NCBI GenBank assembly: GCA_021827495.1
Contig: JAKAVN010000001.1
Location: forward strand, 9,954 to 73,953
Length of the DNA: 64,000 nt
Direction of reading: 5' to 3'
From: Deltaproteobacteria bacterium
Lineage (GTDB): Bacteria > Desulfobacterota > Binatia > Binatales > Binataceae
Shown here: positions 9,678 to 37,417 of the stretch, one piece after another
Layout of the letters: every line of letters begins with the position of its first letter
Numbering within the stretch: the stretch's first letter is position 1
Notes under the pieces: generated by a model
Databases searched by the model: none
What the model was told of the DNA's origin: nothing
What the model saw: only the letters and a program-made list of their open reading frames with translations
Position numbers and translations under genes: made by a program

Positions 9678-9797
9678 AGGCTGCGGAAAAACCCGGCGAA
9701 AGACGATTTCGGCGAAGAGTAAGCATCACTGTAACCACGAGAGTGCGTCTTGGGTCAGTGCTGTCAGGAGTCGAAAACACTTTGTCCGCAACCTGCT
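9678..9797. repeat. Copy A of a ~120-bp repeated structured element with terminal inverted repeats (CTGCGGAAAAAC...TTTGTCCGCAACCTG), immediately 5' of panB
   Basis: ~84% identical to copy B at 50141-50266. The first 41 nt are near-identical (GCGGAAAAACCCGGCGAAAGACGATTTCGGCGAAGAGTA). There is an internal hairpin CGAAA-gacga-TTTCG, and the ends are complementary. Confidence 0.7.
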
Positions 9798-9812
9798 GAT
9801 CGAGGGCATACG

Positions 9813-10643
9813 ATGAACAAAGACAAGGTTCGCATTACCGATCTTGCCACGATGAAGGCGGAAGGCCGGCCGATCGCGATGCTGACGGCCTACGATTTTC
9901 CGTTCGCGCGGATCTTCGACCAGGCCGGCATCGACGTGCTGCTGGTCGGCGACAGTCTCGGTATGGTCGTGCAGGGTGCGGACAGCACGCTTGCCGTCAC
10001 CGTCGACGAGGTGCTGTACCACACTCGGATGGTGGCGCGGGCGCGCCGGCGCGCGCTGCTGGTGGCGGACATGCCGTTTCTCTCATATCAGGTGAGCGCG
10101 GAGAATGCGGTTCTGAACGCCGGCAGAATGCTCAAGGAGGGCGGTGCCGAGGCGGTCAAGCTGGAAGGCGGAATCTTGATCGCCGATACGGTGCACAAGC
10201 TGGTTGGCTTCGACATTCCGGTAATGGGCCATATCGGGCTGACACCCCAGTCGATCCATCGGATGGGTGGGCATCGCGTCCAGGGACGGCGCGCCGGCCA
10301 CGGTCCGGGATGCCGAGAGCGCTTGCTGGAGGATGCGGCGGCGCTGGAGGCGGCGGGGGCGTTTGCGATCGTGCTGGAAGGGATTCCGGCCGAGCTGGCC
10401 GGGGAAATTACCGCGCGCTCGGGCGTGCCCACGATCGGGATCGGCGCTGGCCCTTCGTGCGACGGCCAAGTGCTGGTGATGCACGACATGCTGGGGCTCA
10501 GCGAATCCTTCATGCCGCGCTTCGCCAAGCCCTACGCGCGTCTGTGGCATGACGCCGGCGCGGCCACCGCGGCCTACGTACGCGAGGTGCGCGAGCGCGC
10601 CTTTCCCGCCCCGGAACATTGTTACCGCATGAGGGAGGCCTGA
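9813..10643 (+). CDS. panB: 3-methyl-2-oxobutanoate hydroxymethyltransferase
   Basis: MNKDKVRITDLATMKAEGRPIAMLTAYDFPFARIFDQAGIDVLLVGDSLGMV... is a characteristic PanB sequence. The ORF-track start at 9750 would add 21 unlikely residues. Confidence 0.9.
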   Translation: MNKDKVRITDLATMKAEGRPIAMLTAYDFPFARIFDQAGIDVLLVGDSLGMVVQGADSTLAVTVDEVLYHTRMVARARRRALLVADMPFLSYQVSAENAVLNAGRMLKEGGAEAVKLEGGILIADTVHKLVGFDIPVMGHIGLTPQSIHRMGGHRVQGRRAGHGPGCRERLLEDAAALEAAGAFAIVLEGIPAELAGEITARSGVPTIGIGAGPSCDGQVLVMHDMLGLSESFMPRFAKPYARLWHDAGAATAAYVREVRERAFPAPEHCYRMREA

Positions 10644-10646
10644 ACG

Positions 10647-11504
10647 TTGAAAATCATAACGACTCCAGCGGAAATGCAATGCCGCTCCGACGCGATACGC
10701 CGCGCCGGCAAGCGCATCGCCTTCGTGCCCACGATGGGCTTCCTGCACGAGGGGCATCTCAGCCTGATGCGCGAAGGCAGGCGGCGCGCCGAGGTCGTGG
10801 TGGCCTCGATTTTCGTCAACCCTACGCAGTTCGGCCCCAACGAAGATTTCGGCCGCTACCCGCGCGCCTTCGAGCGCGACTGCGCGCTGATGCAAGAGGT
10901 GCCGGTTGATATCGTTTTTGCCCCGGCGCCGGAGGCGATGTATCCGGCGGGCGCGCAGACCTGGGTCGAGGTGGCGGAGATCACCAAGGGGCTCTGCGGC
11001 GCGCATCGCCCGGGCCACTTCCGCGGCGTCACCACGGTGGTCGCCAAGCTGTTCAACATCGTCAAGCCGCACTACGCGATATTCGGCGAGAAGGACTTTC
11101 AGCAGTTGCGCGCGATCCAGCGGATGGTCAAGGATCTCAACTTCGACCTCGAGATCGTGCCGATGCCGACCGTGCGCGAGTCCGACGGGCTCGCGCTGAG
11201 CTCGCGCAACGCCTACCTTTCGGCCGCCGAGCGCGAGCGCGCGCTCAGCCTCAGCCGCGCGCTGGAAGCCGCGCGCCGCGAATTTGCCGCCGGCGCCCGC
11301 GACCCGCGCGCGCTGGTGCGCGCGGCCTGCGCGGTGCTCAGCGCGACGCCTGAAATCCGCCTCGAGTACATCGAGGCGGTCGACTCCGAGTCGCTGGCGT
11401 CGATCGCGCGTGTCGAACGGCCGGTGGTGGTCGCGATCGCGACCCACGTCGGCAAGACGCGGCTCATCGACAACGCGGTCTTCACTCCACCGCCGCCGGG
11501 ATAA
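10647..11504 (+). CDS. panC: Pantoate--beta-alanine ligase
   Basis: FVPTMGFLHEGHLSLMR (HIGH-type) motif. It is adjacent to panB. It has a TTG start with a GAGGGAGG RBS 8 nt upstream. Confidence 0.9.
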   Translation: MKIITTPAEMQCRSDAIRRAGKRIAFVPTMGFLHEGHLSLMREGRRRAEVVVASIFVNPTQFGPNEDFGRYPRAFERDCALMQEVPVDIVFAPAPEAMYPAGAQTWVEVAEITKGLCGAHRPGHFRGVTTVVAKLFNIVKPHYAIFGEKDFQQLRAIQRMVKDLNFDLEIVPMPTVRESDGLALSSRNAYLSAAERERALSLSRALEAARREFAAGARDPRALVRAACAVLSATPEIRLEYIEAVDSESLASIARVERPVVVAIATHVGKTRLIDNAVFTPPPPG

Positions 11505-14480: not shown

Positions 14481-15644
14481 TTAGGCGGGCCGCTCTTGAA
14501 TCCCGTTCCGCCCGTGCCCCTTCGCGGTCATCCACCACAGCACCAAGGCAAAGACGTAAGTGCCAAAGGCCGTTCCCCAGGCGAAATAGTAAACCCTGTC
14601 GAACAGCGCCAGCACGACCAGCAGGTAGGCGAAGTCACGGCCGCTCACCCGCTCAACCTGCGCGATAAACCGCTCGGTCTGTTCGCCGTTGACGCGAGTC
14701 GCACGCCAGGTCGTGAGCGCACACAGTCCAAAACCAACCAACAGAATGGCGAGCAGGTAGATGTAGGCCCGGCTGCTGCTCGCCCGATAGCATCCGGCCA
14801 TGATGCCGGCGAAGAGCGCGACATGCACCAGGTTGTCGGTGAAAACGTCCAGCCGCGCGCCCCATCGCGACTCAGCCATCTTGAGCCGCGCCAGCTCGCC
14901 GTCGACGCCATCGAGGGTCACCGAGACCAGGAACATCAGGGCGGCGGCCAGGCGCGGCCAATAGCCCGCAAAGCTGAACAGCCACGCGCTCAGCAATCCC
15001 AGCGCGGTATTGACGAGCGTCACCTGGTTGGGTGTGATCGCGGTGCGTGCGAGGCGATAGCTGATTCGCCACGACAGCCGCCGGTCCACCCAGCGCGCCA
15101 TCAGCGCGTCCTTGTCGGCGCTCTCGCGGCGCAGCTCGCGCGCCAGCCTGAGTTCGGCCTCGCGCACATCCTCGGCCCGTCCGTCGAGCGCAAAGGGCAA
15201 CTGGCCGCTTGGCGCGAGCCGCGTTGCCGGGCCGCCGGAGCCATCGAGCAGGCGGCCGAGTGGTCCCGCCGCGACGCTGCCGCGGCGCGCGAGGTCGGTG
15301 CTCTCGACGCTGACGACCCCGCCGGGCCGTGCGGCATGGCTATCGAGCAGGCCGCGCAACTGCGAGGCCGCCAGCACCAGGTTGCCCCTAAACGCGACAC
15401 AGGGCGCGTCGGCCGGCATCTGTTCGAGGACCTGGGCAAACGAGCCGACGAAGTTCACCTCGGGATGGTCGCGGAACGAGCCCAACGAGGCGCGCAGGCC
15501 GCCGCGCTCGGCCTCGCTCGCCTCGATAAAGAACCGCTTCACTCCCGCGCGTTGGCAAATAAGCATCAGGCGCTCGATCAGTGATCGCCCGAAGATCGTG
15601 TTGCCCGCACGGCCCGAAGTGTTGATTAGCGCTGTGTCAACCAA
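14481..15644 (-). CDS. IPCT/DIPPS-like bifunctional protein: N-terminal nucleotidyltransferase-like domain fused to a CDP-alcohol phosphatidyltransferase domain
   Basis: C-terminal half has the CDP-OH transferase motif DGxxAR...G...D...D (LDGVDGELARLKMAESRWGARLDVFTDNLVHV) and multiple TMs. The linker (RWVDRRLSWRISYRLARTAITPNQVTL) resembles archaeal IPCT/DIPPS. The N-terminal ALINTSGRAGNT aligns to the GxGTRL signature but is degenerate. The TTG start is uncertain. Confidence 0.7.
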   Translation of the reverse strand: MVDTALINTSGRAGNTIFGRSLIERLMLICQRAGVKRFFIEASEAERGGLRASLGSFRDHPEVNFVGSFAQVLEQMPADAPCVAFRGNLVLAASQLRGLLDSHAARPGGVVSVESTDLARRGSVAAGPLGRLLDGSGGPATRLAPSGQLPFALDGRAEDVREAELRLARELRRESADKDALMARWVDRRLSWRISYRLARTAITPNQVTLVNTALGLLSAWLFSFAGYWPRLAAALMFLVSVTLDGVDGELARLKMAESRWGARLDVFTDNLVHVALFAGIMAGCYRASSSRAYIYLLAILLVGFGLCALTTWRATRVNGEQTERFIAQVERVSGRDFAYLLVVLALFDRVYYFAWGTAFGTYVFALVLWWMTAKGHGRNGIQERPA

Positions 15645-15646
15645 GG

Positions 15647-15670
15647 AAAGCCTTATTGAATAAAGGCTTT
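15647..15670. promoter_or_regulatory. Palindrome AAAGCCTT-N8-AAGGCTTT in the AT-rich divergent promoter region between the IPCT/DIPPS-like gene and the HAD gene
   Basis: An 8-bp perfect inverted repeat read directly. The surrounding 15645-15782 is ~45% GC against ~67% for the window. Confidence 0.3.
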
Positions 15671-15782
15671 TAGACTAATCGCAGGGCGGAGTCAATGTAC
15701 TGACCGTGCGGTTTGTCTACCTGTTCGTCGACCCTCCATCCCCGCCTGTTCATAACACTTAACTTTTTCGTAACTCCGCTCG

Positions 15783-16592
15783 TTGAGTACTTTGCCATCT
15801 TATTTGTGGAGGCACATAGCGAGGGCTGCTAGACTGGCGCCTGTGGCCAGTCCTGCGCGAGCGATCTTATTCGACTTCGGCGGCACACTCGACCATCCAC
15901 ACCATTGGCTGGACCGTTTCGTGCGCCATTACCGTGCGGCAGGCATGCAGCTCAGCCGTAGCGAGCTGGACGCCGCCTATTCGCACGCGACCCGCACCGC
16001 TTACGAGGCCGGCGAAGAAGTCCATCGCCACAATCTGCACGAGCTTATTCGTTATTTGGTCGCCCATCAGTTCAACTATCTCCATCGCCACGGCCCCGAC
16101 AACGTGCGCGAGCATCTCGCGGGCCTCGGCGACCAGCGCCATCGCTTGGCCGAGCGCATTACCGCCGGCTTCGCCGAGGAGTCGGCCCAAGGACTGGCAC
16201 GCAGCCGCGCGCTCCTCAAGGAACTGTCCCGCGATTTCAAGCTCGGCGTGGTCTCCAACTTTTATGGCAACCTGCAGGTCGTCCTGTTCGAGGCCGGCAT
16301 CCGCGAGTTGCTCCAGGTCGCGATCGACTCCAAGCACCTGCGCGTCTTCAAACCCGACGAGCGGATCTTCACCGCCGCGCTCAAGGTGCTTGACCTGCCG
16401 CACAACCAGGTGGCGATGGTGGGGGACTCGCTGCACAAGGATTGCGCACCCGCGCGCAAGCTCGGCATGCGTTCGATCTGGCTGCGCGGGCATCACGCCG
16501 GACCCGGCGAGCATCCGCAGGCGCGCGCGGCGGCCGCGCTCGCCGACCATACGATCGATTCGCTCGATGAGTTGAAGGAACTCACATGGTAG
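15783..16592 (+). CDS. HAD-superfamily hydrolase (motif I variant DFGGT)
   Basis: ILFDFGGTL motif I, the VVSNF motif II region and a KPDERIF...GDS motif III/IV region. Confidence 0.7.
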   Translation: MSTLPSYLWRHIARAARLAPVASPARAILFDFGGTLDHPHHWLDRFVRHYRAAGMQLSRSELDAAYSHATRTAYEAGEEVHRHNLHELIRYLVAHQFNYLHRHGPDNVREHLAGLGDQRHRLAERITAGFAEESAQGLARSRALLKELSRDFKLGVVSNFYGNLQVVLFEAGIRELLQVAIDSKHLRVFKPDERIFTAALKVLDLPHNQVAMVGDSLHKDCAPARKLGMRSIWLRGHHAGPGEHPQARAAAALADHTIDSLDELKELTW

Positions 16593-17335
16593 ACGGGCTC
16601 CGCGGCGCGATTATCGCGGCCGGCCGGGGCGAGCGCCTGCGCGGCGCGGTGGCTGATCTTCCCAAGCCGCTGGTCGAGCTCGGCGGCGAGCCGATGCTTG
16701 TGCGACAGGCGCGGATAATGCGTGAGGCGGGTGCGGAGACCGTCGTGGCGCTGGTCAATTCCGAGACTGCGAGGCTCATCGCGAGCCGCGCGGTCCGGAT
16801 TGCGTCGTGGATCAAACTCCGGGTGCGCGATACGCCGAGTTCGATGGAATCACTGCTTAGCTTGGGCGAAGACCTGCGCGGCGCCGGGCATTTTCTGCTC
16901 GCCACGGTCGACGCGGTGGTCGAGGCGGCTGAGCTGCGCCGTTTCGCCGGGCGCGCGCTGGAGCTGGCCGGCGGCGCCCCTCCACGCTTCGACGGCGCGC
17001 TCGCGGTGGTGCGATGGCGCGGCGACCAGCGGCCGCTGTTCGCCGAGATCAGGCCGGACGGCGCGATCGCCGCGCTCGGCGGGCGGCCGAGCGCGATGGT
17101 CACGGCGGGCTTCTATTGGCTGCCCGCGGCGATTTTCGATTTGGCCTCGCGGGCGCGCGCCGCGCACCTTGACGCGATGCGCAAGCTGCTCGCGATGGCG
17201 GTCGCAAGCGGGATGCGGCTCGGGGCGATCGAACTCGAGGCGACGATCGACGTCGATGAGTCGGCCGACTTGGCCGCCGCGCGCGCGCTGGTCGCCGGAG
17301 CGCCGCCGCGCAGCCCGGGCGGGGGCGGTAAGTGA
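16586..17335 (+). CDS. Nucleotidyltransferase (MobA-like/sugar-phosphate NTP-transferase family)
   Basis: AIIAAGRGERL (GxGxRL) signature followed by KPLVELGG. It overlaps the HAD stop. Confidence 0.7.
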   Translation: MVDGLRGAIIAAGRGERLRGAVADLPKPLVELGGEPMLVRQARIMREAGAETVVALVNSETARLIASRAVRIASWIKLRVRDTPSSMESLLSLGEDLRGAGHFLLATVDAVVEAAELRRFAGRALELAGGAPPRFDGALAVVRWRGDQRPLFAEIRPDGAIAALGGRPSAMVTAGFYWLPAAIFDLASRARAAHLDAMRKLLAMAVASGMRLGAIELEATIDVDESADLAAARALVAGAPPRSPGGGGK

Positions 17336-18171
17336 AGATGCGTGTGCTGGGGATTTACCGCGAGACCGAGTTTTCTCCGGGCAAGGTCGCGCACGATGCC
17401 GCAATCCTCGACGCGGTGCTGGCTGAGCTCAAGCGCCATGGCGCGGAGGTCTCGGTCATCAGCGCCGCACGCTTTGTCGGTGATGCGCCGGCCAGCGCGG
17501 ACCTGGTGCTCGCGATGTGCCAGGGTGAGCGCGCACTCGGCCGCCTGGTGGCGCTCGAGCAGCAGGGCGCGATCGCGGTCAACTCCGCGCTCGCGATTCG
17601 CAACTGCTACCGCGACCTCCTCTGCGCCGGCCTGATCCATGCCGGGGTTCCCGTTCCGGCCGGTGCGCTGGTCAGGACCGGCGCCCGCCCGCCGGACTTG
17701 ACCCCGCTCGGCGTGCTGGATCTTGACGCGCCGATGTTCATCAAGCGCGGCGACCTGCATGCACTTGCGCCCGACGACGTGCAGCGGGTAGAAAGCCGTG
17801 GCGCGCTGCGCGCGGCGCTGGCCCGGCTGGCGCAGCGCGCAGTGCCGGTAGCCTACGTGCAGCAGGCGGTCGACGGCAGGGTGGTGAAGTTTTACGGCGT
17901 CAGCGGCGGCGAGTACTTTACCGCGCTGGCCGAAGAAGGATCGATATCCGAGCGCGTGCAGTTCGACTTGGCCCGGAGCGCCGCGGCTGCGGCCGCCACG
18001 CTGGGCCTCGAGGCGTGGGGTGGCGATGCGGTAATCGATGGCGAGCGGTTTATGATCATTGATTTCAACGACTGGCCCAGCTTTAGCCGGGTGCGCGAGA
18101 GCGCCGCCCGCGCGATCGCGCGGCGCTGCCTGATGCTCGCGCGCCGGCCGCGCCAAGGCTCTGAGTTATAG
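17332..18171 (+). CDS. ATP-grasp domain protein
   Basis: Size and motif pattern (FIKRGD..., VVKFYGV, a C-terminal IIDFNDWPS-like Mg/ATP region) are consistent with the ATP-grasp fold. Function is not assignable. Confidence 0.5.
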   Translation: MKMRVLGIYRETEFSPGKVAHDAAILDAVLAELKRHGAEVSVISAARFVGDAPASADLVLAMCQGERALGRLVALEQQGAIAVNSALAIRNCYRDLLCAGLIHAGVPVPAGALVRTGARPPDLTPLGVLDLDAPMFIKRGDLHALAPDDVQRVESRGALRAALARLAQRAVPVAYVQQAVDGRVVKFYGVSGGEYFTALAEEGSISERVQFDLARSAAAAAATLGLEAWGGDAVIDGERFMIIDFNDWPSFSRVRESAARAIARRCLMLARRPRQGSEL

Positions 18172-18201
18172 TTTTCCAGGAGGGCCCACGCAGGCCGCAG
18201 C

Positions 18202-19704
18202 ATGAGCAAACCGCACCCGCCGGCGCTTAGGACAGCCGGCGAATTGAAGATCACCAACGGATCCGGAACCGCGAACGGACCAGCTATTTCCAAAGGGCCC
18301 GCGCCCGCCAATGGGGCTGTCACCGCGAGTGAACCGCGGCCTCCTGGCATGCCCGGCCTCCAGCCCAACATCACCACTGCGGTTCCCGGGCCAAAGTCGC
18401 GCGCGCTGTTCGCTGAGGAGCAGAGCCATATCGCGCCGGGCCGCCAGCGTATCTCGCTGCTCGCCAGCCTCGCCTTCGATCATGGCGAGGGCGCCACGCT
18501 GACTGACGTTGATGGCAACGTGTTCGTCGACTTCTTCGCCGGCGTCGGGGTCGCGAGCCTCGGCCACGCGCATCCGGCTCTCGTGCGGGCGCTCGCGCAC
18601 CAAGCCTCGCGGCTCATCGTGGGCACCTTCGCCACGCCCGAGCGCGCGGAGGCCTTCCGGCTGCTCGGCGAAGCCGCGCCCGCGGGCCTTGAGCGTGCGC
18701 ATCTGTACAGCGGCGGCGCGGAGGCGGTCGAGGCGGCGCTCAGGCTCGCGCGCTCGAAAACCAAGCGCCACGAGGTGCTGAGCTTCTGGGGCGGCTTCCA
18801 CGGCAAGACCGGCGGTGTGATTGGGCTCATCGGCGACGAATCCAAGCAGGGCTACGGCCCGTTGCCGGGCGGCCAGTACATGGTGCCGTACGCCGACTGC
18901 TACCGCTGCCCATTCAAAATGGAATATCCGCGGTGCGGGATGTACTGCGTCGATTTCGCGCGCCAGCAGCTCAAGCGCAGCTCCGCAGGCGCGCTTGCGG
19001 CCGTGGTGGCCGAGCCGATGCAGGGAACGGCGGGCAACGTGATTCCGCCCGACGATTATCTTCCCGCGGTCCAGCAAGTCGCGCGCGAGCACGGCGCAAT
19101 GCTCATCGCGGACGAAATGATCACCGGCTTCGGCCGCACCGGGCGCATGTGGGGAATCGAGCACAGCGGCGTCGCACCCGACATCATGACGGTCGGCAAG
19201 GGGATGGGCTCGGGCTTTCCGGTCTCCGGCGTGCTGCTCAGCGAGGAACTGGGACGGAGCGAGCCCTTTGGCAAACCCAGTGCGTCGTCGTCGAGCTACG
19301 GCGGTAATCCGCTGGCCGCAGTCGCGGTCGCCGAGACGCTGCGCACGATCAAGCGCGAAGGGCTGGTCGAAAATTCGGCCGCCGTCGGCGCGTTTTTGCT
19401 CGAGCGCCTGATGCGTCTGCGGGAGAAATACGAATTCGTCGGCGACGTGCGCGGCAAGGGGCTGCTGATCGGCGTCGACCTGGTGCGCGATCGCAAGAGC
19501 AGAGAGATGCTCGGCCGTTCGATAACCGAGGCCATCTTCAAGGAGGCGCTCAAGCGCGGCCTGTTGGTGATGGGTTATTTTCCGCGCATGCGGATCAATC
19601 CACCGCTGGTCATCACGCGCGAGCAGGCCGCGGCGGGTGCGGAAATTCTCGACGAGGTCTTCGCCCACGTCCGCGACCATCTCGACTGGCGCAACGCCCC
19701 GTAG
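18202..19704 (+). CDS. Class-III (omega/GSA-type) PLP-dependent aminotransferase with a ~70-aa low-complexity N-terminal extension
   Basis: GHAHPALV, the FWGGFHGKT glycine-rich region, DEMITGFGRTG, and the pyridoxal lysine in MTVGKGMGSG. Confidence 0.8.
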   Translation: MSKPHPPALRTAGELKITNGSGTANGPAISKGPAPANGAVTASEPRPPGMPGLQPNITTAVPGPKSRALFAEEQSHIAPGRQRISLLASLAFDHGEGATLTDVDGNVFVDFFAGVGVASLGHAHPALVRALAHQASRLIVGTFATPERAEAFRLLGEAAPAGLERAHLYSGGAEAVEAALRLARSKTKRHEVLSFWGGFHGKTGGVIGLIGDESKQGYGPLPGGQYMVPYADCYRCPFKMEYPRCGMYCVDFARQQLKRSSAGALAAVVAEPMQGTAGNVIPPDDYLPAVQQVAREHGAMLIADEMITGFGRTGRMWGIEHSGVAPDIMTVGKGMGSGFPVSGVLLSEELGRSEPFGKPSASSSSYGGNPLAAVAVAETLRTIKREGLVENSAAVGAFLLERLMRLREKYEFVGDVRGKGLLIGVDLVRDRKSREMLGRSITEAIFKEALKRGLLVMGYFPRMRINPPLVITREQAAAGAEILDEVFAHVRDHLDWRNAP

Positions 19705-19761: not shown

Positions 19762-20238
19762 ATGGCTGGAGCTGGCGGAAATCGGGGACTGTTCTGCGAC
19801 TTGGCCGGCACGTTGGTGAAAATGGATGAGACCCGCCAGCTTGCGCTCGGCCCCGACGGAAGAATCGTAGTCGAGCTGCTGCCCGGTGTGGCCGAGAGGC
19901 TCCGCCCGATACGCGATCATCTAATCTTCGTCGTCACCAACCAGGCCGGGATAGCGCGCGGGCGGCTGCGCCTGGAACAGGTCGAAGCGGCGATCGCCGA
20001 GGTCGCCCACCAGCTCGGCGACATCCTGACTGGATGGCGGATTTGTCCGCACGACGACGCCGACCGATGCGCATGCCGCAAGCCCAGGGGCGGGATGCTG
20101 ACCGAGCTGGGCGCGGCCTACGGCGTGGATATGGCGGGATCGACCATGGTCGGTGATCAGGAAATCGACGCCGCGGCGGCGCGCGCGGCGGGCGTCGGCC
20201 GTTTCATCTGGGCGCACGACTTCTTCGGCTGGCAATGA
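19762..20238 (+). CDS. HAD-IIIA family hydrolase (GmhB / histidinol-phosphatase-like), motif I variant DLAGT
   Basis: LFCDLAGTL motif I, VVTNQ motif II and a CxH...CxCRKP zinc motif (CPHDDADRCACRKPRGGML) typical of GmhB-type enzymes. Confidence 0.65.
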   Translation: MAGAGGNRGLFCDLAGTLVKMDETRQLALGPDGRIVVELLPGVAERLRPIRDHLIFVVTNQAGIARGRLRLEQVEAAIAEVAHQLGDILTGWRICPHDDADRCACRKPRGGMLTELGAAYGVDMAGSTMVGDQEIDAAAARAAGVGRFIWAHDFFGWQ

Positions 20239-25281: not shown

Positions 25282-26487
25282 ATGGCTTCAATCGCACCGC
25301 TTAGCGGGATCAAAGTTGTCGATCTCACCAAGCTCGCTCCCGGACCGCATTGCACAATGATCCTTGGCGACCTTGGCGCCGACATCATCAAGGTCGAGGA
25401 ACCCGGCGCGCCCACCGGCCGGCGCGCCGAGCAGGCCGCCGCCGCGGGCAAGACGCAGCGGCGCGGAACCGGGCTGGGCCTGCACAACGCGCTTGGGCGT
25501 AACAAGAAATCGATCGGACTTAATCTCAAGAGCGGGCCGGGACGCGAAATTTTCTTGCGCATGACGCAGCGCGCCGACGTGGTGGTCGAGGAGTTCCGCC
25601 CCGGCGTCGCCAAGCGGCTGGGGATCGACTACCCGATGCTGTCGGCGCGCAATCCGCGGCTGGTGTATTGCGCGGTGACTGGCTTCGGCCAGACCGGACC
25701 GTACCGCGACTACGTCGGTCACGACCTCAACTACATAGCGCAGGGCGGCGCGCTCTCGATGATTGGGCGCAAGGACCAGCCGCCGACGATTCCGCAGAAC
25801 CTGCTCGCCGATTACGCGGGCGGCGGCATGCATGCGGCGATCGGAGTGCTCGCCGCACTGCTCGCGCGCCATCAGACCGGCCGCGGACAGTACGTGGATA
25901 TCGCGATGCTGGACGGGACGATGCTGCTGATCGCGCAGGCGCTCTCGAACCACTTCGGCAAGGGCTGGATTCCCCGCCGCGGCGCAACCACGCTCGACGG
26001 CTCGGCACCCTACTACAACCTGTACCTGACCAAGGACGAGAAATATATCACGATCGGCTCCGTGGAGCCGTGGTTCTACGCCAACCTGTGCCGCGCGCTC
26101 GGCGCCGAGGAATACATCCAGGACGAGTACAACAGCGCCCGCTTCGACGAGATCAAGGCGCGCTTCGCCGAAATCTTCAAGACCAAGACGCGCGAGGAGT
26201 GGTGGGAGATACTTACGCGCAACGACATCTGCGTGGGCCGGATGCTGACGCTCGACGAACTTGAGCACGACCCGCAAATCCGCGCGCGCAACATGATCGT
26301 CGAGGTCGAGGCGCCAACCGGCGAGAAGGTCAAGCAGGTCGGCATTTCGGTCAAGCTCTCCGAGACGCCCGGCTCGATCCGCTCGCTGGCGCCCAGGCTC
26401 GGCCAGCATACCGATGAAATCCTGGCCGATTTGGGCTACGGCCAGCACGACATCGAGCGCTGGCGCTCCGAAGGCGCGATCCGGTAG
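25282..26487 (+). CDS. CoA-transferase family III (CaiB/BaiF) protein
   Basis: GIKVVDLT...[20 protein letters not shown]-terminus and a conserved Asp-containing core (VVEEFRPG). It carries an unusual ~45-aa Arg/Ala/Gly-rich insertion after IKVEEPG. Confidence 0.8.
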
Positions 26488-26633
26488 GCGAACCCCCGGT
26501 AGGCGAACCATAGACTGGAGCATAAGCTGGCCGGTGCATCGGCCGACGCTCATGTGCGGAGTGCCGGCGCTTTGCGGACGCGGAGTTGGCCCGCTGGCGC
26601 GGACTGGCTGGTTAAGGGTCGAGGAAAGTGGCG

Positions 26634-27965
26634 ATGGCCGAGTTACCCGAGTTACCATTGACCTTCATTCGCGGACCCTACGAGCCCCTGCTGATCGACC
26701 ATGCCGAGGGCGCCTGGCTCTATACCGCCGACGGCAGGAAAATCCTTGACGCGGCCGCCGGCGCGGTGGTGACCAATATCGGCCAGGGCCGCGAGGAAAT
26801 CGCGCAACTGGCCGCCAACGAGATGCGCCGCGCCAACTACGTCGTCCCGATCTGGTCGACGCCGCAGCGCCAGCGGCTGGTCAAGCGGCTCGCGCGATGG
26901 ACCGCACCGGGCCTCACCCGGTTCTTCTTCACCTCGGGCGGTTCGGAGGCGGTCGAAGCGGCGCTCAAGTTCGCGCTGATGTATCACAAGGTCCACGGCC
27001 GCCCGCGGCGCACGAAAATCATCGCGCGCGAGGCCTCCTATCACGGCAACACCATCGCGGCGCTGTCGGCCGGCGGCAGCCTGCGCCGCGCCGACTACGA
27101 ACAGGTGCTGTTGGATTGGCCGAAAATCAAACCGTCGTATTGTTACCGCTGTCCGTGGGGCAAGACTTACCCCGGATGCGATATCGATTGCGCCAATGCG
27201 CTCGAGCAAGAGATCAACCGCCACGGCGAGGATTCGATCGCACTGTTTATCGCCGAGCCGATGATGGGCTCGGCAGGCGGCGCGGTACCGCCGGTCAAGG
27301 AGTACTGGCCGCGGCTGGCGGAAATCTGCCAGCGCCACGGCGTGCTGCTGATCGCCGACGAAGTGATGACCGGCTTCGGCCGCACCGGCCGGCGTTTCGC
27401 CGTCGACCATTGGAATGTCATCCCCGACATCCTGATCGGCGGCAAGGGGCTGACCGGCGGCTACCTGCCGATGGGGATGATCGCGGTTAAGGAGCGGCTG
27501 GTCGAGCAGTGCGAAGAGCAGGGCGCCGAGTTCATGTTCTACACCTACAGCGCGCATCCGACCGCCTGCGCGGTGGCCGACCGCGTGCTCGAGATCATGG
27601 AGCGCGAGCATCTGGTCGAGCGCGCGGCCGAGATGGGCGCGCGGCTCGGGGCGCAGCTCAAGGAGGAGCTAGCGGGCCATCCGATGGCCGGCGACATCCG
27701 CGGCGCCGGAATGTTCTGGGGCGTCGAGCTGGTGCGCGATCGCGCCTCGCGCGCGCCGTATCCGCCGGCGCTGAAGGTTGCGAGCAGGGTGGTCGCGGCG
27801 GGACTCAAGCGCGATCTGTTCGTCTATCCGGCGAGCGGGATGGCGCGGCCGGGCGGCGATGCGGTGATGGTCACGCCACCGTTCGTGATCGGCAATGACG
27901 AGATCGAATACCTCGTGAGCCGGCTGCGCGCCACGCTCGACGACGTCCATCCGAATCTGCAGTAG
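26634..27965 (+). CDS. Class-III PLP-dependent aminotransferase
   Basis: FFTSGGSEAVEAALK, DEVMTGFGRTG and the pyridoxal lysine in GGKGLTGG. ATG at 26634 has a better RBS spacing than GTG at 26628. Confidence 0.8.
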   Translation: MAELPELPLTFIRGPYEPLLIDHAEGAWLYTADGRKILDAAAGAVVTNIGQGREEIAQLAANEMRRANYVVPIWSTPQRQRLVKRLARWTAPGLTRFFFTSGGSEAVEAALKFALMYHKVHGRPRRTKIIAREASYHGNTIAALSAGGSLRRADYEQVLLDWPKIKPSYCYRCPWGKTYPGCDIDCANALEQEINRHGEDSIALFIAEPMMGSAGGAVPPVKEYWPRLAEICQRHGVLLIADEVMTGFGRTGRRFAVDHWNVIPDILIGGKGLTGGYLPMGMIAVKERLVEQCEEQGAEFMFYTYSAHPTACAVADRVLEIMEREHLVERAAEMGARLGAQLKEELAGHPMAGDIRGAGMFWGVELVRDRASRAPYPPALKVASRVVAAGLKRDLFVYPASGMARPGGDAVMVTPPFVIGNDEIEYLVSRLRATLDDVHPNLQ

Positions 27966-35948: not shown

Positions 35949-36178
35949 CGCGGCGCTCCTCGATCAGGATTTGGCGCAAGGTTTTTTGACAGAGGATTCG
36001 GCATAGGCTTGGCGCGGTGCCGCGGCTGACGGCATTGATCAGTATAATAACCCGGCCTGCGGATGCGGCAAACGTCGGGCGAAGCCTTGGCGTCGCGGGC
36101 GCGCGCGGGTTGCCCCCTTCGGCGCAAACAGTGCATGATTCGCTGTTGCAGGAAGGCGTTAATCACCAGGAGGTCGCG

Positions 36179-37417
36179 ATGGCGGAGAAGACCCTTGTAC
36201 CCGAGACATTCGGACCGCTTCAGGGGGTCAAAATTATTTCGAACGGCACCTTGGTCGCGCAGCCCTTCGCCGCCGCGCTGGCCGCCGACATGGGCGCCGA
36301 AGTCATCCAGGTCGAGCGCCCCGGCGTGGGCGATGTGGGATGGCGCAACGTCGGCATCCGCCTCAAGACGCGCGACGGTAAGGGCGAGACCGCGACCAAC
36401 TGGGTACAGGAGCGGCGCAACGTCTTCTGCATCTCGCTCGATCTTACCAAGCCGCGCGGGCGCGAGCTGTTCCTGCGCCTGGTCGAGCGCGCCGATATCT
36501 GGATGGAAAGCTCGAAGGCCGGTACCTATCCGAGATGGGGCCTCGACGACGCCGCGGTATGGAAGGTCAATCCGAAGCTGGTGATTGCCCACGTCAGCTC
36601 CTACGGCTTGTATGGCCATCCCGACTACATCGGGCGCACCTCGTACGACATCGTGGGCCAGGCCTTTGGCGGCATCATGCAGCAGACCGGCTTTCCCGAG
36701 ACGCCGCCCGTGCGCGCCGCACCGTGGACGGGCGACTACCTCACGGCGCTGTTCACGCTGTGGTCGTCGCTGGCGGGGCTGACCTACGCGCGCAGCTTTG
36801 GCAAGGGCCAGGCGATCGACATCGCACAGTACGAGGCGATCCATCGCACGCTCGGCGGCACGATGGTCGAGTACTTCCAGCAGGGACTGGTGCGCCAGCG
36901 CTCGGGCAACAAGGCGCAGGGTTTCCAGCCGCTGGACAGCTTCGAGGCCAGCGACGGATGGGTGGTGCTGGGCGCGATCGGCGAGGTCTATGACCGCGTC
37001 GTGCGCGCGATCGGGCTGGACCCGGCCGATCCGAAGTGGCAAAAGGCGCGGCTCGAGATCGAGTCGATGGAGGGGATCGAGTTCGATGCGCTGCTGCGCG
37101 GATGGATCAACGAGCGGACCGCCGATGAAGTCGTGCGGCACATGAACCGGCACAACGTCGCCTGCAGCCGGATCATGTCGAGCAAGGAGATGGCGGAGAA
37201 CGAGCAGTACAAGGCGCGCGAAATGCACGTCGAATGGACCGACGAGCAGGCCGGCAGGGTCAAGGGCATCGGGATAGTGCCGAAGTTCTCGGCCACGCCG
37301 GGCAAGGTCTTCCGCGGCGCGGCCGGAGTCGGCCACGACAACGAGCGGGTCTATGGCGGGCTGCTGGGGCTTAAGCCGGCGGAGATCGAGGGGCTTAAAC
37401 GCGACAAGATAATCTAG
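36179..37417 (+). CDS. CoA-transferase family III (CaiB/BaiF) protein
   Basis: GVKIISNGTLVAQPFAAALAADMGAEVIQVE N-terminus. CAGGAGG RBS before the ATG at 36179. Confidence 0.8.
   Translation: MAEKTLVPETFGPLQGVKIISNGTLVAQPFAAALAADMGAEVIQVERPGVGDVGWRNVGIRLKTRDGKGETATNWVQERRNVFCISLDLTKPRGRELFLRLVERADIWMESSKAGTYPRWGLDDAAVWKVNPKLVIAHVSSYGLYGHPDYIGRTSYDIVGQAFGGIMQQTGFPETPPVRAAPWTGDYLTALFTLWSSLAGLTYARSFGKGQAIDIAQYEAIHRTLGGTMVEYFQQGLVRQRSGNKAQGFQPLDSFEASDGWVVLGAIGEVYDRVVRAIGLDPADPKWQKARLEIESMEGIEFDALLRGWINERTADEVVRHMNRHNVACSRIMSSKEMAENEQYKAREMHVEWTDEQAGRVKGIGIVPKFSATPGKVFRGAAGVGHDNERVYGGLLGLKPAEIEGLKRDKII

Follow-up and report, generated by a model that had tools for sequence, protein, structure and literature searches.

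The fusion gene and its start codon

The window considered here is a stretch of 64,000 nucleotides (nt) from a deltaproteobacterium of the family Binataceae (assembly GCA_021827495.1, contig JAKAVN010000001.1, positions 9,954 to 73,953). Between a gene for a radical S-adenosylmethionine (SAM) enzyme and a divergent operon lies a gene whose product joins an N-terminal domain (N-domain) of predicted nucleotidyltransferase fold to a membrane-embedded cytidine diphosphate (CDP)-alcohol phosphotransferase (Table 1). This fusion protein has 953 homologues, the nearest named ones belonging to Candidatus Binataceae. An earlier reading of the DNA alone (the original prediction) had described it as an IPCT/DIPPS-like fusion, after the bifunctional enzyme that makes di-myo-inositol phosphate; judged by sequence comparison it is an AF2299-type membrane CDP-alcohol phosphotransferase and not an IPCT/DIPPS.

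The only Pfam family matched by the fusion protein is PF01066 (residues 203-335, 47.4 bits against a cut-off of 22). Its signature, D-x2-D-G-x2-A-R-x8-G-x3-D-x3-D, is complete and reads D245-G-V-D248-G249-E-L-A252-R253-x8-G262-x3-D266-x3-D270; the motif DGVDGELAR with its following glycine and aspartates had been recognized originally, and all eight signature residues (D245, D248, G249, A252, R253, G262, D266, and D270) are invariant in 21 aligned homologues. In an AlphaFold2 model, a juxtamembrane helix (residues 187-199) precedes six membrane helices (205-223, 228-255, 260-289, 293-319, 321-347, and 351-375), and Foldseek superposes this part on the structures of AF2299, DIPPS, and phosphatidylinositol phosphate (PIP) synthase. 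By its motif and predicted topology the C-terminal domain is an intact class I CDP-alcohol phosphotransferase. The inter-domain linker (RWVDRRLSWRISYRLARTAITPNQVTLVN, residues 184-212) had been likened to that of archaeal IPCT/DIPPS, and this resemblance holds: profile alignments to AF0263 and AF2299 begin at residues 147-168 and continue through it, and residues 157-352 match positions 207-395 of the NCBIfam profile NF041135, at 81.5 bits against a cut-off of 580.

The start of the gene had been regarded as uncertain because its TTG codon directly follows a hairpin, and it had been allowed that the true start might lie downstream, leaving no N-domain. The hairpin does end 2 nt before the TTG, but TTG, GTG, or ATG stands at the same or the preceding codon in nearly all of about 80 related loci (ATG in L062 and L076), with in-frame stops usually 1-35 codons upstream. 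In the window no start codon intervenes between the TTG and an in-frame TAG located 11 codons upstream, and an AAGG Shine-Dalgarno sequence is placed 6 nt 5′ of the TTG. Homologue alignments further place residues 5-26 (ALI..P.RA...IFGRxLLERL) among the best conserved of the protein. On this comparative evidence the TTG start is real, and its conservation means that there is no missing N-terminal sequence and no room for a hidden signature. An annotation artefact, with the true start at M27 and the N-domain an untranslated leader, or else a pseudogenised remnant, would suit the TTG start, the abutting hairpin, and the public gene calls that begin at residue 16 or later in some homologues; it is scarcely credible, however, given the conserved start and residues 5-26, the Shine-Dalgarno sequence, and a ratio of nonsynonymous to synonymous substitution (dN/dS) well below 1, and the comparative data refute it. 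In one otherwise syntenic locus (L078, 10001-11165, MFD09286.bin.2.82) the orthologue is alignable only from residue 142 and its N-terminal part runs through stop codons, which could reflect a frameshift, an assembly error, or a pseudogene.

The hairpin (15647-15670; 8 bp stem, 8 nt loop, -16.7 kcal/mol, z -2.2) holds the Shine-Dalgarno sequence in its 3′ arm. TTGACT lies at 15690-15695 and an imperfect palindrome, GACAAACCGCACGGTCAG (also given as GACAnACCGCACGGTCAG), at 15700-15717. The whole 100 nt upstream of the start, with all three elements, is strongly conserved in close orthologues, and on the minus strand the palindrome followed by TTGACT (15690-15717) is near-invariant in about 12 orthologous loci while its flanks vary. 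Together they look like an operator and a -35 box for the divergent operons; Rfam and consensus promoter and terminator scans of the intergenic region gave no match. Where the 5′ arm of the hairpin is substituted, in L011, L013, and L015, no compensating change is seen, and without support from covariation the hairpin is not called a regulatory RNA. We treat the region as a conserved promoter/operator and leader, and not as evidence against the start codon.

Table 1. Features of the locus; positions are those of the window, except in the last row, where they are those of the related loci named (aa, amino acids).
Feature	Positions	Strand	Basis or remark
Fusion gene (putative pseudo-nucleotidyltransferase + CDP-alcohol phosphotransferase)	14481-15644	-	Open reading frame, 387 aa, TTG start
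N-terminal domain, aa 1-156, predicted nucleotidyltransferase fold	15177-15644	-	AlphaFold2 model, Foldseek
Linker and juxtamembrane helices, aa 157-203, like DIPPS and AF2299	15036-15176	-	Profile alignments
Six-helix transmembrane CDP-alcohol phosphotransferase domain, aa 204-375	14520-15035	-	PF01066 (E = 3.5e-12), model
Catalytic motif D245..D270	14835-14912	-	Read from sequence
Divergent intergenic region	15645-15782	.	Hairpin, TTGACT, palindrome
B12-binding radical-SAM enzyme, 441 aa	13132-14457	-	Pfam, NCBIfam; public gene calls also 441 aa
HAD-IA hydrolase, first gene of divergent operon	15783-16592	+	PF00702, PF13419; start codon uncertain
Stand-alone canonical nucleotidyltransferase, 249 aa	16586-17335	+	PF12804, PF00483
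ATP-grasp ligase-like protein, 279 aa	17332-18171	+	Model, Foldseek
Class III (omega) aminotransferase	18202-19704	+	PF00202 (E = 4.6e-96)
HAD-IIIA phosphatase, GmhB/histidinol-phosphatase type	19762-20238	+	TIGR01662, 68.5 bits (cut-off 44.6); conserved in Binataceae
Flippase-like genes beside relatives	L002 11337-12344; L005 8954-9937; L016 11305-12447; L027 11414-12427		

The N-terminal domain

The AlphaFold2 model, built on 21 sequences (pLDDT 81.7, pTM 0.73), lays the fusion protein out as a domain of alternating strands and helices (residues 1-156), a long linker helix, the juxtamembrane helix, and the six membrane helices. With both domains aligned, the top Foldseek match in the Protein Data Bank (PDB) was 4MND (E = 6e-11), and matches were also found to the AF2299 structures 4O6N, 4O6M, and 4Q7C (E = 3e-10 to 2e-9) and to PIP synthase chimeras carrying the AF2299 domain, among them 5D91 (E up to 2e-8). 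All these alignments exceed 400 columns, those to AF2299 and 5D91 spanning 401-408. The N-domain alone matched the cytidylyl- and guanylyltransferases KdsB, CobY, IspD, and MurU at E of about 1e-3.

Where such enzymes are expected to carry the signature G-x-G-T-R-L, the fusion protein has ALINTSGRAGNT (residues 5-16). The absence of the nucleotide-binding signature, noted originally for the one protein, extends to the family: G-x-G-x-R-[LMI] occurs in the first 80 residues of none of 203 members (83 derived from loci and 120 from databases). PF12804 gave no match to the fusion protein of the window at E up to 10 and matched 3 of 21 homologues below threshold (E = 7e-6 or weaker); P0064 and P0079 scored 25.4 and 26.7 bits against a cut-off of 27, over profile positions 22-135 only. 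The first 21 positions of that profile are those that we take to carry the G-x-G-x-R loop and the lysine. A weak hhalign alignment (E = 0.059) sets residues 16-108 opposite residues 31-129 of the family of the stand-alone nucleotidyltransferase encoded nearby, pairing IFGRSL with LGGEPM and G87-N88 with V108-D109, which sets N88 against the near-invariant metal-binding Asp of the neighbour. The first 15 residues of the fusion protein thereby stand opposite 30 residues of the neighbour that include AAGRGERL and PKPL. At the place of the metal-binding Asp, 81 of the 83 sequences from loci have Asn (N88) and the wider set has N, D, S, or A; the C-terminal ED..AE motif of the fold is kept (LPFALxGRPEDxxEAE).

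With residues mapped through hhalign against the neighbour family and through Pfam coordinates, we conclude that the N-domain is probably a shortened nucleotidyltransferase fold that lacks the signature loop, the P-K lysine, and the metal-binding Asp, its catalytic apparatus having been lost. That all catalytic residues might be retained in shifted positions, as the original prediction had allowed, finds no support in alignments from which loop, lysine, and Asp are absent family-wide.

The domain is nevertheless not decaying. Among close orthologues (dS 0.49-1.0), the N-domain has a dN/dS of 0.18-0.28, comparable with 0.14-0.26 in the remainder of the protein, a pattern of purifying selection. 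Searched alone against 1.84 billion representative proteins, it gave only 72 clusters (E up to 1e-3), with many short fragments among them, and PF01066 was also present in each of the nine full-length cluster members scanned. The N-domain thus appears to be a narrowly distributed, selected, and obligatorily fused module.

It had been proposed that the N-domain is regulatory or inactive. Inactivity agrees with the loss of catalytic residues; toward regulation, the data reach as far as a non-catalytic domain under purifying selection. A ligand-sensing domain, controlling the membrane active site in response to a bound nucleotide or phosphorylated metabolite, would account for that selection, for the conserved or nearly conserved R12, R20, R25, R32, and R37, for the persistence of N88 and of the ED..AE motif, and for FGRxLLERL and C30-x-R32-x-G34, which sit at the phosphate-binding places of nucleotidyltransferases. 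Contacts with a partner protein or with the membrane domain itself would explain the conservation equally well, however, and we consider ligand sensing improbable; it would be compatible with, and not exclusive of, the explanation favoured below.

The conserved gene cluster

The stand-alone nucleotidyltransferase had been singled out originally for its intact AAGRGERL, and it proves canonical. It exceeds the cut-offs of PF12804 (42.9 bits against 27) and PF00483 (24.9 against 21.2), and AAGRGERL (residues 11-18, 16616-16639) is followed by PKPL (residues 26-29, 16661-16672). Across the 67 members of its family there is no variation at A11, A12, G13, G15, R17, P26, K27, P28, L29, T107, or V108, and L18 and D109 are kept in 66. 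The profile NF041135 divides between the two genes: positions 3-76, in its IPCT half, match the N-terminus of the stand-alone enzyme, and the fusion protein covers only the DIPPS half.

The neighbourhoods of fusion relatives were compared by tblastn in 80 fetched genomic loci, with linkage counts given over 85 loci. About 70 of the 85 have the radical-SAM gene downstream of the fusion gene, and in about 70 at least one of the HAD hydrolase, nucleotidyltransferase, ATP-grasp, and aminotransferase genes accompanies the fusion gene. The full set was seen in about 55, on loci long enough to show it, most of the others being short contigs with part of the set. In about 55 loci the fusion gene and then the radical-SAM gene face a divergent series of HAD hydrolase, nucleotidyltransferase, 279-residue protein, aminotransferase, and HAD-IIIA phosphatase. 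The set of HAD, nucleotidyltransferase, ATP-grasp, and aminotransferase genes occurs in three gene orders, those of Binataceae, Syntrophobacteraceae, and Desulfarculales. It stands upstream of and co-directional with the fusion gene in the Syntrophobacteraceae loci L016 and L019, and in the Desulfarculales locus L027 a single operon encodes the phosphotransferase, a flippase-like protein, the B12 radical-SAM enzyme, the HAD hydrolase, the nucleotidyltransferase, the ATP-grasp protein, the aminotransferase, and a GFO/IDH/MocA oxidoreductase. Because the linkage is kept despite rearrangement in three lineages, it is good evidence for a shared function. What is conserved, as far as gene order can tell, is a cluster of five to seven genes and not a pairing with a single neighbour; it usually also includes a gene for a B12 radical-SAM enzyme or for a flippase-like membrane protein. 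The split or neo-functionalised system suggested originally thus gains plausibility from synteny and from the two profile halves, with a pairing that spans five to seven genes. The literature searched held nothing relevant, either on this set of genes or on CDP-alcohol in Binatia.

Within the window, overlaps of 7 nt (HAD hydrolase and nucleotidyltransferase) and 4 nt (nucleotidyltransferase and ATP-grasp protein), with the 23-nt junction at the radical-SAM gene, indicate operons. The GTG start of the latter (14457) lies behind GGGAGG, 23 nt past the stop of the fusion gene, and these two genes are probably co-transcribed. The best family matches of the radical-SAM enzyme (BchE, PhpK-type P-methyltransferase, and HpnJ) are all far below cut-offs. 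Phosphonate and hopanoid readings of the cluster were rejected: neither a phosphoenolpyruvate mutase nor a squalene-hopene cyclase occurs in the cluster or the scanned open reading frames of the window, and the HpnL- and HpnJ-like matches are below cut-offs. Across Binataceae-type loci the radical-SAM enzyme is mostly 83-96% identical, lower only in L021 and in the broken L032, and is far more conserved than the phosphotransferase (50-83%) or the HAD hydrolase and nucleotidyltransferase (43-86%) of the same loci.

The 279-residue protein has no Pfam match. Its model (pLDDT 83.2) resembles D-Ala-D-Ala ligases and LysX in Foldseek (E = 3e-13 to 2e-11, TM-score 0.62-0.74), and ArgX, ITPK4, Ddl, and RimK are weak profile matches; by this model it has an ATP-grasp ligase fold. 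The aminotransferase is 72-89% identical among Binataceae-type loci and about 55% in L016, L019, and L027. In L027 the oxidoreductase gene (17565-18632) follows that of the aminotransferase, and no equivalent adjoins the Binataceae cluster. Such a pair typically turns a secondary alcohol into an amine, as in aminocyclitol or amino-sugar formation. Public gene calls start the HAD hydrolase later, with 223 residues, and range from 215 to 257 residues in all, some beginning after the motif I region (FDFGGTLD); conservation covers this motif, which has Gly instead of Asp at +2 as in the dehalogenase-type HAD branch.

Beyond the radical-SAM gene lie panB and panC (9750-11504, plus strand), and panC is found within a few kilobases in most Binataceae loci, which is probably plain synteny. 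Some 7-17 kb downstream, outside the conserved cluster, are a second class III aminotransferase (26628-27965, plus strand) and two family-III CoA-transferases (25282-26487 and 36017-37417).

Another partner is seen beside relatives of the fusion gene. A paralogous group of about 430 residues, with a C-terminal amphipathic extension and without the soluble-enzyme set, adjoins a gene for a flippase-like LPG_synthase_TM protein (L002 and L005), and three representatives (P0205, P0221, and P0244; 769-787 residues) are fusions of N-domain, phosphotransferase, and LPG_synthase_TM. These fusions exceed the cut-off of TIGR00374 ("flippase-like domain"), and an HpnL-like match reaches 113 bits against 196. 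Both the flippase-like gene and the soluble-enzyme set are present in L016, L019, and L027. No flippase-like gene was found within 10 kb in the window or the Binataceae loci, where the radical-SAM gene holds the downstream position. For some of the family at least, the association points to a product anchored in the membrane. L002 also carries genes for a GT2 glycosyltransferase, an MMPL protein with a sterol-sensing domain, and a sulfotransferase, and L016 for a sulfotransferase, an O-methyltransferase, and MlaE; with the flippase-like genes, these neighbours hint at a lipid-modification system.

Proposed function and known systems

With moderate confidence, we interpret the fusion protein as a dead N-domain joined to an active six-helix enzyme whose donor is supplied in trans by the stand-alone nucleotidyltransferase, within a cluster that makes an amine- or amide-bearing phospho-alcohol product. 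The C-terminal domain would take a CDP-activated alcohol and transfer the phospho-alcohol to a second alcohol with release of cytidine monophosphate. The N-domain, which on the model could no longer make CDP-alcohol, would most likely be a structural cap over the active site or a docking surface. The cytidylyltransferase step, we infer, would come from the stand-alone nucleotidyltransferase, making the CDP-alcohol donor. The aminotransferase and the ATP-grasp ligase may introduce and acylate an amine, the B12 radical-SAM enzyme may modify, probably methylate, an intermediate, and a HAD phosphatase may remove the remaining phosphate; HAD-type dephosphorylation is known from the pathways of di-myo-inositol phosphate phosphate (DIPP), phosphatidylglycerol phosphate (PGP), and PIP. 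As end product we infer a phosphodiester-linked polar head group or solute bearing an amine or amide. The main argument for supply in trans is that the phosphotransferase is the only possible consumer of a nucleoside diphosphate (NDP)-activated intermediate in the Binataceae cluster, and a split division of labour between the two genes is plausible from gene content.

Several points weigh against this interpretation. The best full-length matches of the stand-alone nucleotidyltransferase, all far below cut-offs, are sugar-1-phosphate nucleotidyltransferases (AglF and MurU), and the paralogous group (L002, L005, L041, L072, and L079) has no nucleotidyltransferase nearby. In profile searches the N-domain sequence matches neither the N-domain of AF2299 nor any solved nucleotidyltransferase, and its link to that fold rests on the predicted structure, the sub-threshold Pfam matches, and the weak hhalign alignment. 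Six-helix CDP-alcohol phosphotransferases use soluble acceptors, lipid acceptors requiring extra helices (PMC4634129). If the flippase link indicates a lipid product, a soluble acceptor would imply CDP-diacylglycerol as donor, which the nucleotidyltransferase would not supply.

These last points lead to a lipid enzyme resembling PIP synthase, an alternative that we judge unlikely. CDP-diacylglycerol would be made elsewhere, the cluster would build a phosphorylated amino-polyol acceptor, and a HAD phosphatase would remove the phosphate. The stand-alone nucleotidyltransferase would then serve another step, for example by attaching a cytidylyl handle for the radical-SAM enzyme, as happens in fosfomycin biosynthesis. 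Six helices without extra C-terminal ones, with the soluble acceptors expected of them (PMC4634129), would suit this scheme, as would the adjoining or fused flippase-like protein with its suggestion of a membrane-anchored product, the two HAD phosphatases of the cluster, and PIP synthase and archaetidylinositol-phosphate synthase as next-best NCBIfam matches. The family profile, however, scores AF2299 at 94 bits (E = 6.7e-26) and AF0263 (IPCT/DIPPS, 4MND) at 55 bits (6e-14), ahead of PIP synthases at 37 bits, and AF2299 and DIPPS use soluble CDP-alcohols. Moreover, the nucleotidyltransferase remains linked in L016 and L019, which lack the radical-SAM gene, and the Binataceae cluster offers its activated product no other consumer.

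Supply of the donor in trans, our preferred reading, can be extended to channelling between pseudoenzyme and enzyme. Here the N-domain would dock the active, paralogue-like nucleotidyltransferase onto the phosphotransferase, and Binatia, with related lineages of Desulfobacterota type, would use the cluster to make a phosphodiester head group or solute that bears an amine or amide and is so far undescribed; we advance this as a tentative possibility. Most phospholipids owe their head groups to CDP-alcohol phosphotransferases, which also make several stress solutes, and a cluster of this kind in the uncultured, soil-abundant Binataceae could explain an unassigned polar lipid or solute. An N-domain that appears non-catalytic and selected, tied to an intact stand-alone nucleotidyltransferase, also offers a testable idea of dead domains as cap, dock, or gate.

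Among known systems, IPCT/DIPPS (AF0263, 4MND, NF041135) shares with the fusion protein its domain order, linker, juxtamembrane helix, and six-helix domain, and the same logic of a cytidylyltransferase feeding a CDP-alcohol phosphotransferase. It is the top Foldseek match and the best NCBIfam name, and the Joint Genome Institute (JGI) so names the homologue P0108. A true bifunctional enzyme making di-myo-inositol phosphate with displaced catalytic residues is nevertheless very improbable. The IPCT/DIPPS-like label stands for the linker and membrane half, but the protein falls far short of the NF041135 cut-off and covers the DIPPS half only, its N-domain has about 156 residues against about 206 profile positions for the IPCT part, some 50 fewer, and loop, lysine, and Asp are absent family-wide; score, length, and lost residues largely refute the identity. 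The cytidylyltransferase half of the fusion is apparently dead, and the active copy is a separate gene. No inositol-1-phosphate synthase was found in the cluster or in the window's open reading frames scanned (up to about 45.2 kb), and we know of no role for ATP-grasp, class III aminotransferase, or B12 radical-SAM enzymes in di-myo-inositol-phosphate synthesis.

PIP synthases (PgsA1 and RsPIPS) and archaetidylinositol-phosphate synthase share the six-helix fold, and a phosphorylated product that is later dephosphorylated would suit the HAD phosphatases of the cluster. Their sequence similarity to the fusion protein is lower, and their donor, CDP-diacylglycerol, needs no soluble nucleotidyltransferase. 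Natural PIP synthases have no N-terminal domain, the solved chimeras having borrowed that of AF2299 (PMC4634129). A further likeness, to the MprF-type flippase domain (LPG_synthase_TM, PF03706; HpnL-like), lies in the relatives of the fusion that adjoin or fuse with such a protein. MprF itself couples head-group synthesis with a flippase domain.

The closest counterpart is AF2299 (4O6M, 4O6N, and 4Q7C), which the original prediction had taken to be the IPCT/DIPPS; that enzyme is AF0263, and AF2299 is the better match, being the closest in sequence among solved structures (E = 1e-16 for the single sequence). To our knowledge its cytidylyltransferase-like domain has been used mainly as a crystallisation aid, and the literature that we consulted assigns it no biological role. 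Af2299 and AfDIPP synthase both carry such a domain at the N-terminus, and Af2299 binds CDP-glycerol in a small hydrophilic donor pocket (PMC4634129); its function is termed only "probable" (PMC8633023), and both papers leave its physiological reaction unsettled. The two-domain architecture is the same as that of the fusion protein, the model aligning over more than 400 columns, and the active-site stretches are near-identical (GELARLKMAESRWGARLD in the fusion, GEIARLKFMESKYGAWLD in AF2299). The AF2299 N-domain stretch VKNHEIYGEKLLGLTLRERIEKTLQRAGFD likewise appears without G-x-G-x-R in alignments. The N-domains themselves show no significant similarity, a profile search giving no match at E up to 10 and an alignment of 33-36 residues having an i-Evalue above 2000; a common degenerate ancestor of the two would have to be posited without significant sequence similarity between them. 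A protein search with the AF2299 membrane fragment returned only relatives of about 210 residues that lack the N-domain, AF2299 itself not being among them. Because the structure of AF2299 with such a domain had already been published, the joining of an N-domain to a CDP-alcohol phosphotransferase is not new. What is added to AF2299 is the family itself, which is bacterial (Binataceae and some Desulfobacterota-type lineages), together with an apparently dead domain that is selected and obligatorily fused and a conserved multi-gene cluster.

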